From a virus (taxonomy: Duplodnaviria > Heunggongvirae > Uroviricota > Caudoviricetes), in IMG/VR virus record IMGVR_UViG_2609459844_000002, positions 1 through 4,763 of that record: a stretch of 4,763 bases of DNA; one strand, given 5' to 3'. Position numbers and translations under genes: made by a program. Of the stretch, positions 1-4,763 are shown piece after piece. Within the stretch, counting starts at the first letter, position 1; every line of letters starts with the position of its first letter. The notes under the pieces were generated by a model. It did no database searches, was not told the DNA's origin, and saw only the letters and a program-made list of their open reading frames with translations.

Positions 1-55
1 GAGCAATTGCCTTCTAAGCAATCGGTCACTGGTTCGAATCCAGTACAACGCGCCA
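1..55 (+). tRNA. tRNA-Arg (anticodon UCU), 3' portion; 5' end lies outside the window
   Basis: Foldable by eye: anticodon stem 6-10/18-22 (ATTGC/GCAAT), 7-nt loop CTTCTAA with anticodon TCT at 13-15, U33 and A37 present; 5-nt variable loop; T-arm ACTGG-TTCGAAT-CCAGT (28-44); acceptor 3' strand 45-51, discriminator G52, CCA 53-55. Lambdoid and Stx phages carry rare-codon Arg tRNAs (argN/argO type) downstream of Q. Confidence 0.7.
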
Positions 56-69
56 CACTTATTTTCCCT

Positions 70-96
70 GGCTCGCTTTTGCGGGCCTTTTTTTTT
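70..96 (+). terminator. Rho-independent terminator downstream of the tRNA
   Basis: Stem GGCTCGC (70-76), loop TTTT, stem GCGGGCC (81-87) with one G-U pair, followed by a run of nine T (88-96). Confidence 0.55.
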
Positions 97-293
97 AAAT
101 GTCTCACAATTCAGACGGTTGACTGTTGTCTGGTTTGCGGGGAGTTTGTTAAAAGAAACTGGCATGGTGAATCCCCCTGTGCGGAGGGGCAATCAGCGAG
201 TAGGTATATGGGATAATCGCGGATTCAGGTGCTGGTACTGAATTCACCGGGAGGCACCCGGCACCATGCAATGGCACATAGCGCCACTCTCCA

Positions 294-320
294 GCCCCTC
301 TCCGGAGGGGCTTTCTTGTG
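294..320 (+). terminator. Putative rho-independent terminator
   Basis: Perfect 7-bp stem GCCCCTC (294-300) / GAGGGGC (305-311), loop TCCG, followed by the T-rich stretch TTTCTTGTG. Confidence 0.45.
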
Positions 321-323
321 GGC

Positions 324-352
324 AAAAAAAGCCCGCGCTGGGAGACGCGGGC
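324..352 (-). terminator. Putative rho-independent terminator for leftward transcription
   Basis: Perfect 7-bp stem GCCCGCG (331-337) / CGCGGGC (346-352) with an 8-nt loop, preceded on the + strand by A7 (324-330), which is a U7 tail on the - strand transcript. Confidence 0.4.
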
Positions 353-449
353 GGCAAGGAATAAACAATAAAACGTGAAGTAATATTTCAGCTGGCGAAT
401 AATACCCCATAGTAATCACTCTGCGCAACTGCGCGGTCTTTTTCGAATT

Positions 450-504
450 GCGGGCTGTCGTCTCTCTTCTGCCATTGTCCTGTAACTTCCGGACTTCAGC
501 CCGC
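450..504 (+). repeat. Perfect 8-bp inverted repeat (GCGGGCTG ... CAGCCCGC) with a 39-nt spacer, in the leader of the esterase gene
   Basis: Read directly: 450-457 is the reverse complement of 497-504. Lies about 40 nt upstream of the start at 546. Function unknown (leader stem-loop or protein-binding site). Confidence 0.5.
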
Positions 505-545
505 TCCTCATTTTACTCACAATATTATCCCGGCCGGGAGGATTC

Positions 546-1481
546 ATGGCATTTAAACACTATGATGTTGTCAGGGCGGCGTCGCCGTCAGACCTTGCGG
601 AAAAGCTGACACACAAACTGAAAGAGGGCTGGCAGCCATATGGCGGACCGGTTGCCATTACGCCGTACACACTGATGCAGGCGGTGGCTATTGAAGGAGA
701 TCCACAGGTCGGCCCTTCATCTGAGCCGGACTGGTTCTACGTGGTTGTGCTTGCCGGACAGTCCAACGGCATGGCCTACGGTGAAGGGCTTCCGTTACCG
801 GATTCTTACGATGCTCCGGATCCGCGCATTAAACAGCTGGCGCGCCGCAGCACGGTAACTCCGGGTGGAGAGAGTTGTACGTATAACGACATCATCCCGG
901 CTGACCACTGTCTGCATGATGTGCAGGATATGAGTACGCTGAATCATCCGAAGGCAGACCTGAGCAAAGGGCAGTACGGCTGTGTCGGCCAGGGCTTACA
1001 TATTGCCAAAAAACTGCTTCCGTATATCCCGAATAACGCGGGGATCCTGCTGGTACCATGCTGTCGTGGTGGTTCGGCATTCACCCAGGGCGCGGAGGGG
1101 ACATTCAGTGCGGACACGGGGGCCAGCCAGGATTCGGCACGCTGGGGTGTGGGTAAACCGTTATATCAGGACCTGATCGCACGCACCAAAGCGGCATTAC
1201 AGAAGAACCCGAAAAATGTGTTGCTGGCGGTGTGCTGGATGCAGGGAGAGTTTGACATGAGCGCCGCCACCTACGCACAGCAACCTGCGCTGTTTACAGC
1301 CATGCTGAAGCAGTTTCGTGCTGACCTCACTGTGTTTAACGCGCAGTGTCATGGTGGCAGTGCTGTAAATGTGCCGTGGATTTGTGGTGACACGACGTAT
1401 TACTGGAAAAATACATACGCTATTGCTGTGTCTCCGATGCTGTATGGGCTGGCAAAACTGGTCATTGCGCTGAAATCGTGA
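546..1481 (+). CDS. DUF1737-domain / SGNH-type (sialate O-acetylesterase-like, NanS-p-like) protein, 311 aa, possibly a short or truncated form
   Basis: Strong SD GGGAGGA 4 nt before the ATG. N-terminus (MAFKHYDVV...KEGWQPYGGPV) has the pattern typical of DUF1737. The LAGQSNGMAYGEG motif is the GQSN nucleophile block of the SASA/SGNH esterase family. The position, downstream of phage tRNAs and upstream of the lysis genes, is where lambdoid/Stx phages carry nanS-p paralogs. Confidence 0.8.
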   Translation: MAFKHYDVVRAASPSDLAEKLTHKLKEGWQPYGGPVAITPYTLMQAVAIEGDPQVGPSSEPDWFYVVVLAGQSNGMAYGEGLPLPDSYDAPDPRIKQLARRSTVTPGGESCTYNDIIPADHCLHDVQDMSTLNHPKADLSKGQYGCVGQGLHIAKKLLPYIPNNAGILLVPCCRGGSAFTQGAEGTFSADTGASQDSARWGVGKPLYQDLIARTKAALQKNPKNVLLAVCWMQGEFDMSAATYAQQPALFTAMLKQFRADLTVFNAQCHGGSAVNVPWICGDTTYYWKNTYAIAVSPMLYGLAKLVIALKS

Positions 1482-1580
1482 ACTTTAAAAAGATGAGTGC
1501 TGAACTTATTCGGGCAATGGCATTTGCCATTCGTATTGTGGCCATTGCTGTTCTGGTCTGGACAATCCGTTGGTGGTGAT

Positions 1581-2048
1581 ATGAACCGTGTTCTGTGTGT
1601 GGTGATTATTGTCCTGCTGGTAGCCTGTGGTGTGCTTAGTCTGGGGCTGAATCATTACCGTGATAACGCCATTACCTACAAAGCCCAGCGCGACAAAAAT
1701 GTCAGAGAACTGAAGCTGGCGAACGCGGCAATTACTGACATGCAGATGCGTCAGCGTGATGTTGCTGCGCTCGATGCAAAATACACGAAGGAGTTAGCTG
1801 ATGCGAAAGCTGAAAATGATGCTCTTCGTCGCAAGCTTGATAATGGTGGCAGGGTGCTCGTCAAAGGAAAATGCCCTGTGCCATCCTCAGCCGAAACCTC
1901 CAGCGCCTCCGGCATGGGCAATGATGCCACCGTCGAACTCTCTCCAGTTGCTGGACGAAACGTTCTCGGTATCCGGGACGGAATTATCCGCGACCAAACA
2001 GCACTGAGAACGCTTCAGGAATACATCAGGACGCAATGCCTTCGATGA
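1581..2048 (+). CDS. Rz: Rz i-spanin (inner-membrane spanin subunit)
   Basis: N-terminal TM segment followed by [59 protein letters not shown], near-identical to lambda Rz as I recall it. I place the start at ATG 1581 (the track's GTG at 1497 is upstream in frame) because it aligns with the lambda Rz N-terminus and is preceded by a GGTGG SD-like sequence. Confidence 0.9.
1801..2007 (+). CDS. Rz1: Rz1 o-spanin (outer-membrane lipoprotein), embedded in the +1 frame of Rz
   Basis: Wholly inside Rz in a different frame. Signal peptide plus lipobox (LIMVAGC), then the proline-rich stretch [19 protein letters not shown] 8 nt upstream. N-terminus MRKLKMML resembles lambda Rz1 (MLKLKMML). Confidence 0.85.
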
Positions 2049-2222
2049 TAGCGATAATTTTACTCATCATCCTTCACATCTGGCTCTGTAGACAGGGTGG
2101 TGATCACTTCTGGAGTGAATCCAGATTTAACATCTCATTGCTGATGCTTGATATTGAGCATCTTGCGCGCGGTAAGGGGCTGCGTTGAGATAAGAGCCAG
2201 TCATCACAAACACCAGGATTTA

Positions 2223-2248
2223 GCCTCGCATTCGCGGGGCTTTTTATT
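2223..2248 (+). terminator. Rho-independent terminator downstream of Rz/Rz1
   Basis: Stem GCCTCGC (2223-2229), loop ATTC, stem GCGGGGC (2234-2240) with one G-U pair, followed by TTTTTATT. Confidence 0.5.
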
Positions 2249-2266
2249 GCAACAAAGGTAAAGACG

Positions 2267-2554
2267 ATGGATGAAGAATATCGTAAAGACCTGCAATTGT
2301 GGTTTGGCCTGACGCATGCGTCGTTCTGCGTGATGCCGAGAGTATTCATGGAGGCTATGCCGCAAGAATGGCAAGAGAAGATGGCGCAGTTGCTTTTTGA
2401 GTATGGCGACACGATCAAAACGGATGTCTGCGGAGTTCACTGCTGTTTCGTTACTGCCAAAGACGGCAACAACCGCTTTATGAGGATGCCAGAAGATATT
2501 CTGAACTATCGTCATCCCCGGCGTGAGTTCATCGAATCATTTCTGAAGAAGTAG
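2267..2554 (+). CDS. Hypothetical protein, 95 aa
   Basis: ORF with E. coli-like codon usage (CTG, CCG, GCG, ACG common) and balanced charged/hydrophobic composition; weak SD (AAGG) about 8 nt upstream; begins just after the terminator at 2223-2248. No family recognised. Confidence 0.55.
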   Translation: MDEEYRKDLQLWFGLTHASFCVMPRVFMEAMPQEWQEKMAQLLFEYGDTIKTDVCGVHCCFVTAKDGNNRFMRMPEDILNYRHPRREFIESFLKK

Positions 2555-2647
2555 CCATTACAAAGTCTATCTGCGGGGGGCTTGATAAAGGTGCTTTCAC
2601 CTCGCTTAGCATGGTATGTTCTGACTACCAACTTTTTGGGAGGACAC

Positions 2648-2872
2648 ATGGAACTGATAAATGGACGGCCAGGCAGAGATTTTATAGTGGGAACATATAC
2701 CTACTCAGAAATTAAAGATCTTAACTTCATGGCTAAGGAAGAGAAAAGAGCTCGTGAAGAGCTAAAGCATCGGGGTTACGAATTGGCGTATATCAAGGCG
2801 GACTCTGAATGTAACGGGATGTTTGTCAGGGCGTACCGGGTCTATACTGACAAAGCGCCATCTAATGTCTAA
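2648..2872 (+). CDS. Hypothetical small protein, 74 aa
   Basis: ATG at 2648 preceded by GGGAGGA (2638-2644). The track's TTG start at 2582 is in frame but has no SD, so I prefer 2648. AT-rich relative to the flanking phage genes; a T6 run follows the stop. No family recognised. Confidence 0.5.
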   Translation: MELINGRPGRDFIVGTYTYSEIKDLNFMAKEEKRAREELKHRGYELAYIKADSECNGMFVRAYRVYTDKAPSNV

Positions 2873-2938
2873 ATATACCTCGGGCGGTTTTTTACGTTCA
2901 TTACCGTACGCAATTACAGCAGGCATTCATTGAGTGCC

Positions 2939-2947
2939 TGTGATAAT
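2939..2947 (+). promoter_or_regulatory. Candidate extended -10 promoter element (TGTGATAAT) for the 134-aa ORF
   Basis: TG at 2939-2940 plus GATAAT at 2942-2947 (5/6 match to TATAAT), about 60 nt upstream of the GTG at 3008. No good -35 element, which is compatible with an extended -10 promoter. Prediction by eye only. Confidence 0.3.
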
Positions 2948-3007
2948 GATTTATCAACGTGCTTGCAAACGGTATTCTAGACCTCCAATTATCCTAAGGA
3001 GGTTTTT

Positions 3008-3412
3008 GTGGTTAAAAATTTAGAATACATGAAGGGGATGCTTGAGGTATTTTTGAAAGCGAAAACTCCCTTTATATCTACAAAAGACTTAGCTAATGCG
3101 GGGTACGATATCTGCTCGAATGAAGGGATGTTTCATTATCTACTTCTTATTGAGCAAGGTTATATCAGTAATAAAGATCTAATAACGGATGACATAACTA
3201 AACTGGGCTACATGCGCCATTGTGGCCATATGCTAGATATGGGTACCGACGTGCGACTATCTGCGCAGGGACAAGAATTCGCCCAGGCATTAAATGAACC
3301 TACGGTTTTTGAGAAATTAAAGTCAATGAGCGATGCCCCTTTGAGTACAATCAAAGATGTTGGGCTGGAGTTAACGAAGGCCTATTTAAAGAAGAAATTT
3401 GGCCTCGAGTAA
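3008..3412 (+). CDS. Hypothetical protein, 134 aa, in AT-rich moron; possibly DUF2513-like
   Basis: Canonical SD AAGGAGG (2996-3002) 5 nt before GTG 3008 (an alternative ATG lies 21 nt downstream in frame). Coding segment is visibly AT-rich compared with the flanking phage genes. The N-terminal pattern and the GYDI...HYLLLIEQGYI motif resemble my recollection of DUF2513 phage proteins; unverified. Confidence 0.6.
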   Translation: MVKNLEYMKGMLEVFLKAKTPFISTKDLANAGYDICSNEGMFHYLLLIEQGYISNKDLITDDITKLGYMRHCGHMLDMGTDVRLSAQGQEFAQALNEPTVFEKLKSMSDAPLSTIKDVGLELTKAYLKKKFGLE

Positions 3413-3624
3413 AATTTCTACCCTCACGAGTTAAGTTGTTTTGTGATGGTTATTCGCAATGAATATCTTTAGCCACTGGCATTTGCTGGTGGTTTTTTTA
3501 TGCGCATCCCTCGCGCACCACAAAGGGAGTCTTTCAGTAGTGATTCTGAATATCAGTGTGATAAACGTATTTGATAATCATTATCATTTTTGGTGGGTCC
3601 TTTCCGGCGATCCGACAGGTTACG

Positions 3625-3636
3625 GGGCGGCGACCT
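3625..3636 (+). other. cosN: lambda-type 12-nt cohesive-end sequence GGGCGGCGACCT
   Basis: Exact lambda cohesive-end sequence, preceded by the lambda right-end sequence ...GATCCGACAGGTTACG and followed by lambda left-end sequence running into the Nu1 start. The cos region overall (cosQ side, cosN, cosB) spans about 3560-3800. Confidence 0.8.
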
Positions 3637-3732
3637 CGCGGGTTTTCGCTATTTATGAAAATTTTCCGGTTTAAGGCGTTTCCGTTCTTCTTCGTCATAA
3701 CTTAATGTTTTTATTTAAAATACCCTCTGAAA

Positions 3733-3789
3733 AGAAAGGAAACGACAGGTGCTGAAAACGGGCTTTTTGGCCTCTGTCGTTTCCTTTCT
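3733..3789 (+). repeat. cosB region: perfect 16-bp inverted repeat (AGAAAGGAAACGACAG / CTGTCGTTTCCTTTCT) flanking a 25-bp spacer; probable Nu1-binding R elements with an intervening IHF site
   Basis: Inverted repeat read directly (3733-3748 and 3774-3789). Position between cosN and the Nu1 start matches lambda cosB, where oppositely oriented R sites flank the I1 IHF site. Confidence 0.6.
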
Positions 3790-3813
3790 CTGTTTTTGTC
3801 CGTGGAATGAACA

Positions 3814-4227
3814 ATGGAAGTCAACAAAAAGCAGCTGGCTGACATTTTCGGCGCGAGTATCCGTACCATTCAGAACTGGCAGGATTTGCCCGTAATCAAG
3901 CTGGGTAACGCGCGGGTTGTCCTTTCCCGCCGCAGACGTCGTAAAAAGGGGCAGCGTTCATCCCTGAAAGGTGGCGGCAGCGTGCTTGTGGTGGGAAACC
4001 GTCGTATTCCCGGCGCGTTTATTCAGCAACTGAAAAATGGCCGGTGGCATGTCATGCAGCGTGTGGCCGGGAAAAACCGTTACCCCATTGATGTGGTGAA
4101 AATCCCGATGGCGGTGCCGCTTACCACGGCGTTTAAACAGAATATTGAACGGATACGGCGTGAACGTCTTCCGAAAGAGCTGGGCTATGCGCTGCAGCAT
4201 CAACTGAGAATGGTAATAAAGCGATGA
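3814..4227 (+). CDS. Deletion-fusion ORF: Nu1 N-terminus (23 codons) joined in frame to the C-terminal ~114 codons of tail protein Z
   Basis: MEVNKKQLADIFGASIRTIQNWQ is the lambda Nu1 N-terminus; DNA similarity to lambda Nu1 stops at about 3884. The rest (DLPVIKLGNARVVLSRRRRRKKGQRS...LRMVIKR) matches my recollection of the lambda gpZ C-terminus and ends in the ATGA stop/start overlap with U, as Z/U do in lambda. Probably a non-functional remnant. Confidence 0.75.
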   Translation: MEVNKKQLADIFGASIRTIQNWQDLPVIKLGNARVVLSRRRRRKKGQRSSLKGGGSVLVVGNRRIPGAFIQQLKNGRWHVMQRVAGKNRYPIDVVKIPMAVPLTTAFKQNIERIRRERLPKELGYALQHQLRMVIKR

Positions 4228-4619
4228 AACATACTGAACTCCGTGCAGCCGTACTGGATGCACTGGAGAAGCATGACACCGGGGCGACGCTTTTTGATGG
4301 TCGCCCCGCTGTTTTTGATGAGGCGGATTTTCCGGCAATTGCCGTTTATCTCACCGGCGCTGAATACACGGGCGAAGAGCTGGACAGTGATACCTGGCAG
4401 GCGGAGCTGCATATTGAAGTTTTCCTGCCTGCTCAGGTGCCGGATTCAGAGCTGGATTCGTGGATGGAGTCCCGGATTTATCCGGTGATGAGCGATGTCC
4501 CGGCACTGTCAGATTTGATCACCAGTATGGTGGCCAGCGGCTATGACTACCGGCGCGACGATGATGCGGGCCTGTGGAGTTCTGCCGATCTGACTTATGT
4601 CATTACCTATGAAATGTGA
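4224..4619 (+). CDS. U: Tail tube terminator protein U
   Basis: 131 aa, near-identical to lambda gpU as I recall it ([22 protein letters not shown]...LTYVITYEM). Same length and same position between Z and V. Confidence 0.93.
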
Positions 4620-4626
4620 GGACGAT

Positions 4627-4763
4627 ATGCCTGTACCAAATCCAGCAATACCGGTGAAAGGTGCCGGAACCACCCTGTGGGTTTATAACGGGAGCGGCGA
4701 CCCTTATGCGAACCCGCTTTCAGACGTTGACTGGTCGCGTCTGGCTAAAGTTAAAGACCTGAC
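4627..4763 (+). CDS. V: Major tail protein V, N-terminal 45 codons; continues beyond the window
   Basis: [45 protein letters not shown] matches the lambda gpV N-terminus; GAGGA SD 5 nt upstream; 7-nt gap after U as in lambda. Confidence 0.92.

Follow-up and report, generated by a model that had tools for sequence, protein, structure and literature searches.

Orphan Rz/Rz1 spanin genes behind a truncated esterase gene in a defective lambdoid prophage of Escherichia coli

Introduction

What has become of a lambdoid lysis cassette in which the spanin genes Rz and Rz1 follow an esterase gene so closely that a holin and an endolysin gene find no room between them? The question is raised by a stretch of 4,763 nucleotides of viral DNA (Caudoviricetes; positions 1 to 4,763 of IMG/VR record IMGVR_UViG_2609459844_000002), referred to below as the window. 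A preliminary description, made from the sequence alone, placed the end of the esterase ORF at position 1481, a 28-codon hydrophobic ORF (here ORF28) at 1493–1579 and the start of Rz at 1581, and these coordinates are all correct. It also proposed that a deletion had joined the esterase gene to the tail of the lysis cassette, that the esterase might have lost its C-terminus in the event, and, by implication, that ORF28, whose stop codon forms with the Rz start codon the arrangement TGA-T-ATG, was linked to the scar or to the R gene. Comparison with intact relatives bears out the deletion scar and the truncation, places the joint at 1421–1422 and separates ORF28 from it. The features on which the argument relies are the following.

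546–1481, + strand: chimeric 311-aa ORF, codons 1–292 of a NanS-p-type esterase followed by 19 foreign codons (tblastn, Pfam, PHROG)
546–1420, + strand: native 5′ part of the esterase gene, 98.5% identical to the 617-aa esterase gene of E. coli 266917_2
1421–1422, no strand: deletion joint, a 2-nt TA microhomology present in both parental sequences (three-way alignment)
1423–1481, + strand: 3′ remnant of ORF51 (WP_042004856.1, 156 nt in intact prophages), equal to UPEC69 L001 7583–7641
1493–1579, + strand: ORF28 (ATG 1493, TGA 1577–1579), intact small hydrophobic ORF, WP_032159578.1 (homology)
1581–2048, + strand: Rz i-spanin, 155 aa, intact (PF03245 Phage_lysis, E=1e-31; PHROG 13, E=1.6e-71)
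1801–2007, + strand: Rz1 o-spanin lipoprotein, 68 aa (PF06085 Rz1, E=3.8e-21; lipobox MVAGC)
3814–4227, + strand: Nu1::Z, second deletion scar (Pfam Phage_Nu1 and Minor_tail_Z on one 137-aa product)

Results

The prophage remnant

The window is part of a defective, Stx-phage-like lambdoid prophage of E. coli. Its 5′ edge consists of the 3′ part of a tRNA gene (positions 1–52), recognised by Rfam and followed by an Rfam match to the small RNA STnc100 at 133–323; ARAGORN reported no tRNA in the window, because this tRNA is cut by the window edge. At the 3′ end are cos, the Nu1::Z ORF, U and the beginning of V.

The junction was located in other sequences by one search alone, a look-up of the exact 311-aa fusion protein. 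The protein is encoded on at least 16 contigs, and the whole window is present at 100% identity in each of the six contigs that were fetched, which derive from NCBI, ENA, JGI and Logan and from different samples. The carrier contigs reach up to 286 kb and their sources name E. coli. In these contigs the remnant adjoins the chromosomal genes cobB-potD-potC, with the integrase gene beside potC/potD/cobB. Viewed on its right side as far as the 10-kb flank, it runs from integrase, xis, a YdfE-type exonuclease and DicB through a block that is variably present (hok, DUF968, RusA, Q) to a DNA methylase and the tRNAs; it continues with the truncated esterase, ORF28, Rz/Rz1, three hypothetical genes, Nu1::Z and U, and ends with a truncated V, a truncated J, Lom, the tail fibre and Tfa. 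The remnant has no terminase, portal or head genes, and V and J have been shortened by a V/J deletion. The element is thus a defective (cryptic) lambdoid prophage, integrated and devoid of modules essential for the lytic cycle. In the Nu1::Z ORF, codons 1–23 of Nu1 are followed, in the same frame, by the C-terminal part of tail protein Z, the joint lying near 3882, the window position at which homology to Z begins.

Two structural variants of the remnant exist. In four of the six contigs a further deletion of 4720 bp has removed hok through Q together with the N-terminus of the methylase, and the joint between esterase and ORF51 is identical in the forms with and without the Q region. That the two variants have this joint in common implies that the deletion of the lysis genes came first and that decay went on afterwards.

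Position and content of the deletion

Megablast searches of 5426 complete E. coli genomes and of GenBank phages showed that homology on the left stops at 1422 and homology on the right begins at 1421. In a three-way alignment, the window equals the esterase parent through ...ACGCTA and equals the distal parent from TATTGCTG... onwards. The left flank (window 300–1422) is 98.5% identical to E. coli 266917_2, where it corresponds to the 5′ part of an esterase gene whose product has 617 aa. The right flank (window 1421–3669) is 99.96% identical to UPEC69 (L001 7581–9829), with a single nucleotide different in 2249, and 98.8% identical to the prophage of the O104:H4 outbreak strain. The crossover in the dinucleotide TA is a signature of illegitimate recombination.

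The content of the missing segment, which measures 2764 bp on the coordinates of UPEC69 and 3214 bp on those of O104:H4, can be read from these two intact prophages. Their gene order is tRNA-Ile, tRNA-Arg, tRNA-Arg, (iraM), an esterase of 617–618 aa, a class II holin, YdfR (DUF1327), a lysozyme of 177 aa, small ORFs of 132, 156 and 87 nt, and Rz. By Pfam, the deleted genes are Phage_holin_2_1 (the P21 holin S), DUF1327 and Phage_lysozyme.

The exact junction, taken as the 25-mer 1411–1435 or as window 1360–1480, had no spanning match in the GTDB representative genomes; nor did the exact junction have one in IMG/VR, in the GenBank phage collection or in the 5426 complete E. coli genomes. Among sequenced prophages, no intact one was found that combines an esterase of the 98.5% type with a distal cassette of the 99.96% type.

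The truncated esterase

The 311-aa ORF is a chimeric pseudogene. When the 617-aa esterase was used as a tblastn query, residues 1–292 alone matched the remnant, whereas codons 293–311 (IAVSPMLYGLAKLVIALKS) are the last 19 codons of ORF51, in frame, and the stop codon at 1479–1481 is ORF51's own. In agreement, PHROG 1115 and 3246 match residues 292–311 of the ORF. A native short form of 311 aa, the reading under which the esterase would be complete, is rejected: the native form has 617–618 aa and homology ends at residue 292.

NanS-p proteins consist of three domains in about 645 aa, and their genes are flanked by the tRNA/stx position on one side and by the holin gene S on the other (PMC10462455). 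The 311-aa ORF begins as a member of this group, with DUF1737 (PF08410, E=5e-16) at residues 3–49, but its SASA/SGNH domain is incomplete by Pfam. The catalytic domain of NanS (3PT5) aligns to residues 60–379 of the full-length esterase, and the C-terminal lectin-like domain of NanS-p (DUF6645; 6YP6), which corresponds to residues 422–613 of the 617-aa form, is absent. Catalysis by NanS depends on Ser19 and His301 (PMC9063846); converted by means of the 3PT5 chain tag offset, these become Ser73 and His359. The nucleophile Ser73 is retained, but His359 lies past the break at residue 292 and is lost, so that no complete catalytic domain is left. Devoid of the catalytic histidine and of the lectin-like domain, the fusion esterase would be catalytically dead.

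Spanins without holin or endolysin

Downstream of the joint, ORF28, Rz and Rz1 are all intact. The PF03245 match covers residues 29–153 of Rz, PHROG 13 is the family named 'Rz-like spanin', and the protein has the hydrophobic N-terminus of an i-spanin; it is 100% identical to an Rz in IMG/VR (locus L011), and its gene falls within the 2249 nt that are 99.96% identical to UPEC69. Rz1 is embedded in Rz in the +1 frame and has the lipobox cysteine of an o-spanin.

Holin and endolysin are absent across the remnant. The preliminary description had found neither in the window and had allowed for both in a rearranged cassette elsewhere in the same prophage. In the six contigs (L005–L010), over the interval from the integrase gene to the tail-fibre assembly gene, tblastn gave no match for P21-type holin, YdfR, lysozyme, lambda S or lambda R, and no holin, lysozyme or peptidase Pfam was present among the called genes of the carrier contigs. 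Of a complete lambdoid lysis cassette, the remnant thus has neither the holin nor the endolysin. The peptidoglycan meshwork restrains spanin complexes for as long as the endolysin has not removed it (PMC6139136). Since spanins act after the endolysin has cleared the peptidoglycan, the cassette should be unable to lyse the cell, as had been proposed for spanins alone. The Rz/Rz1 pair would accordingly be functionally orphaned, and the element probably can neither lyse its host nor make particles.

ORF28 and its relatives

An ORF of 28 codons is not significant in itself, since the window contains 67 ORFs of at least 25 codons; ORF28 is accepted as a real gene on account of its homology. In both intact prophages, that of UPEC69 and that of O104:H4, it is annotated with the same sequence and position, about 550 nt beyond the end of the lysozyme gene. 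There are records of the exact peptide on 592 contigs and of a variant with one residue changed on 998, and the 180-nt module made up of the ORF51 tail, ORF28 and the start of Rz is present at a coverage of at least 80% in 609 of the 5426 complete E. coli genomes.

ORF28 matches the small-protein families PHROG 4493 (E=5.8e-6) and PHROG 3246 (E=6e-5). As ORF51 matches both of them too, the two are tandem paralogues; they have in common ...RA(L/M)AFAI(K/R)...VA.... Homologues in viable phages, found by tblastn against the phage collection, are those of PhiR5_1 (96%), GER2 (81%, a 37-aa form) and phiSTEC1575-Stx2k (67%, a 57-aa form). All three finish in ...RWW-TGA-N-ATG, 1 nt before the ATG of the next gene. 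PhiR5_1 and GER2 have Rz there, phiSTEC1575-Stx2k a gene for a 60-aa lipoprotein. Both its profile matches and its conserved position directly upstream of a spanin gene thus assign ORF28 to the PHROG 4493/3246/1115 family. Over 22 codons, pN/pS is about 0.15–0.33 in five informative pairs, and pS exceeds pN in six of six pairs over the 22 alignable codons, in both cases a small sample; between GER2 and phiSTEC1575-Stx2k, pS is 0.61 and pN 0.09 (22 codons). The last codons, CGT TGG TGG TGA, as read from the sequence, contain GGTGGTGA, which resembles a Shine-Dalgarno sequence for Rz; this may be one reason why the terminal codons are conserved. An alternative GTG start at 1478, which overlaps the upstream stop codon (GTGA, 1478–1481), would give a product of 33 aa, the form used by some annotators.

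ORF28 is thus a native, intact gene and neither part of the scar nor a remnant of R, and the preliminary description has to be revised on this point. The joint is 70 nt upstream of ORF28, which is identical in the intact cassettes. The sequence TGA-T-ATG, taken before for a coupled R/Rz junction, is the native junction between ORF28 and Rz, and is also found in GER2 and phiSTEC1575-Stx2k. Together with GTGA at 1478–1481, the tight spacing at 1577–1583, by which Rz starts at ATG 1581 one base past the ORF28 stop, is the original gene arrangement and no product of the deletion. The frame of ORF28 does stay open upstream to 1391, after a TGA at 1388–1390, as had been observed, but the open stretch is an accident of the joint and has no meaning. 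Positions 1391–1492 are out-of-frame esterase sequence followed by out-of-frame ORF51 sequence, and only 1493–1579 is ORF28; the parent without the deletion has a stop codon in this frame just 5′ of the joint.

Pfam gave no match for ORF28, ORF43, ORF51 or the three downstream ORFs. Terminator-like hairpins inside ORF28 (1513–1542) consist of weak 5-pair stems.

Members of the ORF28/ORF51 family carry the AFAI motif, end in ...RWW or ...ALKS and occur in variable number between endolysin and spanin genes, in translational coupling with the spanin start. For this family of small membrane peptides coupled to spanin genes there is no Pfam family, and no described function was found in the literature. 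It is tempting to speculate that such single-pass peptides are an undescribed accessory component of P21-type-holin lysis cassettes with a genuine part in lysis, a proposal that we regard as rather doubtful. Candidate roles may be the tuning of spanin synthesis, of spanin activity or of endolysin release. If the proposal were true, the remnant would have kept one member of the family by accident. These genes are the only lead of wider value that the locus offers.

Discussion

Prophages decay by deletion, and it is very probable that a single deletion in a lambdoid prophage made the joint between esterase and ORF51, leaving ORF28, Rz and Rz1 untouched downstream. One illegitimate-recombination event of about 2.8–3.2 kb, with its crossover in the TA at 1421–1422, would have run from codon 292 of a NanS-p-type sialate O-acetylesterase gene (617 aa in full) to the final 19 codons of ORF51, which in the parent would have been located between the endolysin and the spanins. 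The esterase would thereby have lost its catalytic histidine and its lectin-like domain, and the cassette its P21-type class II holin, YdfR (DUF1327) and lysozyme. Also lost would have been an intrinsic-terminator-like hairpin, one small ORF and most of a second. Prophage decay or domestication would usually end in such a loss of the lethal genes.

Other explanations have to be weighed against this history. A chimera or other artefact of assembly might be suspected, given that the junction escaped detection in 5426 complete E. coli genomes, the phage collection, IMG/VR and the GTDB representatives. Such an error is hardly credible and the suggestion is rejected, because the window is repeated exactly in contigs of independent origin: at least 16 contigs carry the exact 311-aa fusion, six contigs from four independent sources carry the full window without a difference, and the joint is common to two structural variants of the remnant. 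It was likewise reasonable to expect that ORF28, with its frame open to 1391, might be the 3′ remnant of the endolysin gene R or of another lysis gene, and TGA-T-ATG an old R/Rz junction, since the endolysin gene directly abuts Rz, without intervening small ORFs, in 78 of the 80 IMG/VR loci of Rz relatives. This reading, too, is very improbable and was abandoned. Intact prophages with a full lysozyme gene upstream have ORF28 in complete form, from the same start codon to the same stop codon; ORF28 lacks similarity to lysozyme and to lambda R and instead matches families of small proteins; the homology on the right begins at 1421, upstream of ORF28; and in the parent a stop closes the ORF28 frame ahead of 1493.

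More weight attaches to the possibility that two resident lambdoid prophages, or an infecting phage and a prophage, recombined at the 2-nt microhomology and that the joint did not arise by deletion within one element. The left flank is matched best by 266917_2 and the right flank by another genome, UPEC69, the UPEC69 esterase is just 88.6% identical to that of the window, the distal cassette of 266917_2 is of a different type, and a genome of E. coli that has any esterase-homologous place has a median of three. We nevertheless consider such an origin unlikely: lambdoid phages are mosaic and a single parent with both flanks is perhaps unsequenced, and on both sides of the joint the genes have precisely the order and orientation of a single cassette. 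Under either origin S and R would equally be lost. Finally, the ORF28-Rz-Rz1 block, or an esterase fusion with a hydrophobic tail, might have been kept because it benefits the host. ORF28, Rz and Rz1 are indeed intact, the fusion keeps the reading frame up to a native stop codon overlapping the GTG start, so that the chain of translational coupling is kept, and the Rac prophage of K-12 also retains an intact rzoR. Domestication of this kind is nonetheless improbable. With one nucleotide different in 2249 from an intact prophage, the deletion is too recent for the intactness of the block to say anything about selection; chance alone gives an in-frame fusion in one case out of three; the deletion of the Q antiterminator region in one variant argues against a need for expression; and the esterase lacks its catalytic histidine.

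The consequences are mainly for annotation, and the locus is of little importance beyond it. For the 311-aa 'DUF1737 domain-containing protein' of several E. coli assemblies, the annotation should be that of a chimeric pseudogene made of a truncated esterase and a small-ORF remnant; the Rz/Rz1 pair should be entered as orphan spanins belonging to a lysis-dead remnant. The variants with and without the Q region, whose joint is resolved to 2 nt, nevertheless offer a clean and datable case of stepwise prophage decay.

Among the known systems close to the window are the prophages of O104:H4 2011C-3493 and UPEC69, which have the same distal cassette (ORF51, ORF28, Rz/Rz1 and the downstream hypothetical genes) at 98.8–99.96% DNA identity, and the viable phage PhiR5_1, which is 91.9% identical over window 1421–1828. 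In all three, the order of tRNA, esterase and lysis genes is as in the window, but they keep the 617–618-aa esterase, the holin, the YdfR/DUF1327 gene and the lysozyme, all of which the window lacks. The 311-aa ORF resembles the NanS-p proteins of the 933W L0105 type in its N-terminal DUF1737, in the SASA/SGNH region that follows and in its location between the tRNA/stx position and that of the holin gene S; unlike the characterised three-domain proteins of about 617–645 aa, it leaves the NanS-p sequence at residue 292. With the lambda and P21 cassettes the remnant shares an embedded, two-component Rz/Rz1 spanin, and the genes deleted here are a P21-type class II holin and a phage lysozyme. 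Lambda and most relatives of this Rz, however, are devoid of the small membrane-peptide genes between R and Rz that the cassette type of the window has. For these peptides, the releasin gp25 (DUF2730), an accessory protein tethered to the membrane and encoded in the lysis cassette of Mu, is a precedent in the regulation of SAR endolysins (PMC9239132), an analogy of possible function only, as gp25 and the ORF28 family have no sequence relationship. Finally, the Rac prophage of E. coli K-12 likewise has spanin genes in a defective lambdoid prophage without an adjacent holin or endolysin, in the order ydaW, rzpR, rzoR, trkG (NC_000913.3 annotation). In Rac, rzpR, the Rz homologue, is a truncated pseudogene of 300 nt, whereas in the window Rz and Rz1 are both of full length and the joint is mapped to the base. 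The locus is a product of ordinary prophage decay and adds to the orphan spanins already documented in Rac a further, cleanly mapped example.

Deletion scars and flanking genes

The same remnant exists in two variants, as seen when positions 4043-8762 of L005 are compared with L007, both being contigs that contain the entire window. One variant keeps hok, DUF968, RusA, the Q antiterminator and the full methylase, and the other has an extra deletion of 4720 bp by which the DicB region is joined to the middle of the methylase gene. The esterase/ORF51 joint is common to both variants, and this gives the order of the deletion events. Other features of the window are as follows.

1-52, tRNA truncated by the window edge, 3′ part only
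133-323, + strand, STnc100 (Rfam RF02076), full-length match, 139 bits versus a gathering score of 47
2267-2554, 95-aa ORF, PHROG 3527, E=2.5e-56
3814-4227, Nu1::Z in-frame deletion scar, joint near 3882, one 137-aa product

In this second scar, which represents the loss of all terminase, portal and head genes, codons 1-23 of Nu1 continue into the C-terminal portion of tail protein Z, and the product carries both Pfam domains, Phage_Nu1 and Minor_tail_Z. Of the 233 positions in the PHROG 3527 profile, the 95-aa ORF covers just 139-230 and so resembles a C-terminal fragment of some longer gene. Yet annotations of the intact prophages UPEC69 and O104:H4 contain this same 288-nt ORF; any truncation would therefore be older than the remnant in the window.

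The STnc100 match is flanked by the tRNA cluster and the esterase gene. In UPEC69 and O104:H4 the tRNAs and the esterase gene are separated by iraM, encoded on the minus strand; positions 313-544 of the window are unlike both prophages and correspond to the iraM-less arrangement, as in strain 266917_2.

Organization of the lysozyme-Rz interval

In related prophages, the lysozyme-Rz interval holds small ORFs for single-pass membrane peptides in tandem arrays that vary from one to four members, located as follows.

L001 (UPEC69), 7256-7739
L002, 3713-4159
L004, 10420-10748
L012, 2898-2999

The array ORFs, coupled via GTGA or a short spacer, can be divided by sequence into at least three types (WKFLLVW..., MSDKLITPAKVLCVIVG... 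and AFAI), and in strain 266917_2 the 132-nt and AFAI-type ORFs occur in swapped order. L012 contains a hybrid ORF whose 3′ end forms the same ...IRWW-TGA-A-ATG junction. Its small-ORF/Rz junction (about 2975-2990) reads ...CGCTGGTGGTGAAATG and contains a perfect Chi octamer, GCTGGTGG, whose counterpart in the window, GTTGGTGG, has one mismatch; the octamer at this position is probably a coincidence.

Intact cassettes carry a strong terminator-like hairpin, AAAAACCCCGTTTGTTGGCAGCAAGCGGGGTTTTGTTTTT, 3′ of the lysozyme gene. In UPEC69 (about 7180-7225 of L001) this hairpin comes before the array of small ORFs and Rz, in the part that the window has lost. In the window, Rz is followed by a comparable terminator-like hairpin (2222-2241).

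A 57-aa homologue of ORF28, the 28-codon AFAI-type ORF preceding Rz in the window, is found together with its following gene in phage phiSTEC1575-Stx2k (L093, 2411-2768), the cassette endolysin of which is an M15 peptidase. There, TGA-C-ATG couples the homologue not to Rz but to a 60-aa lipoprotein-like gene with the lipobox LLVGC; the small ORF thus accompanies the starts of differing downstream lysis-region genes.
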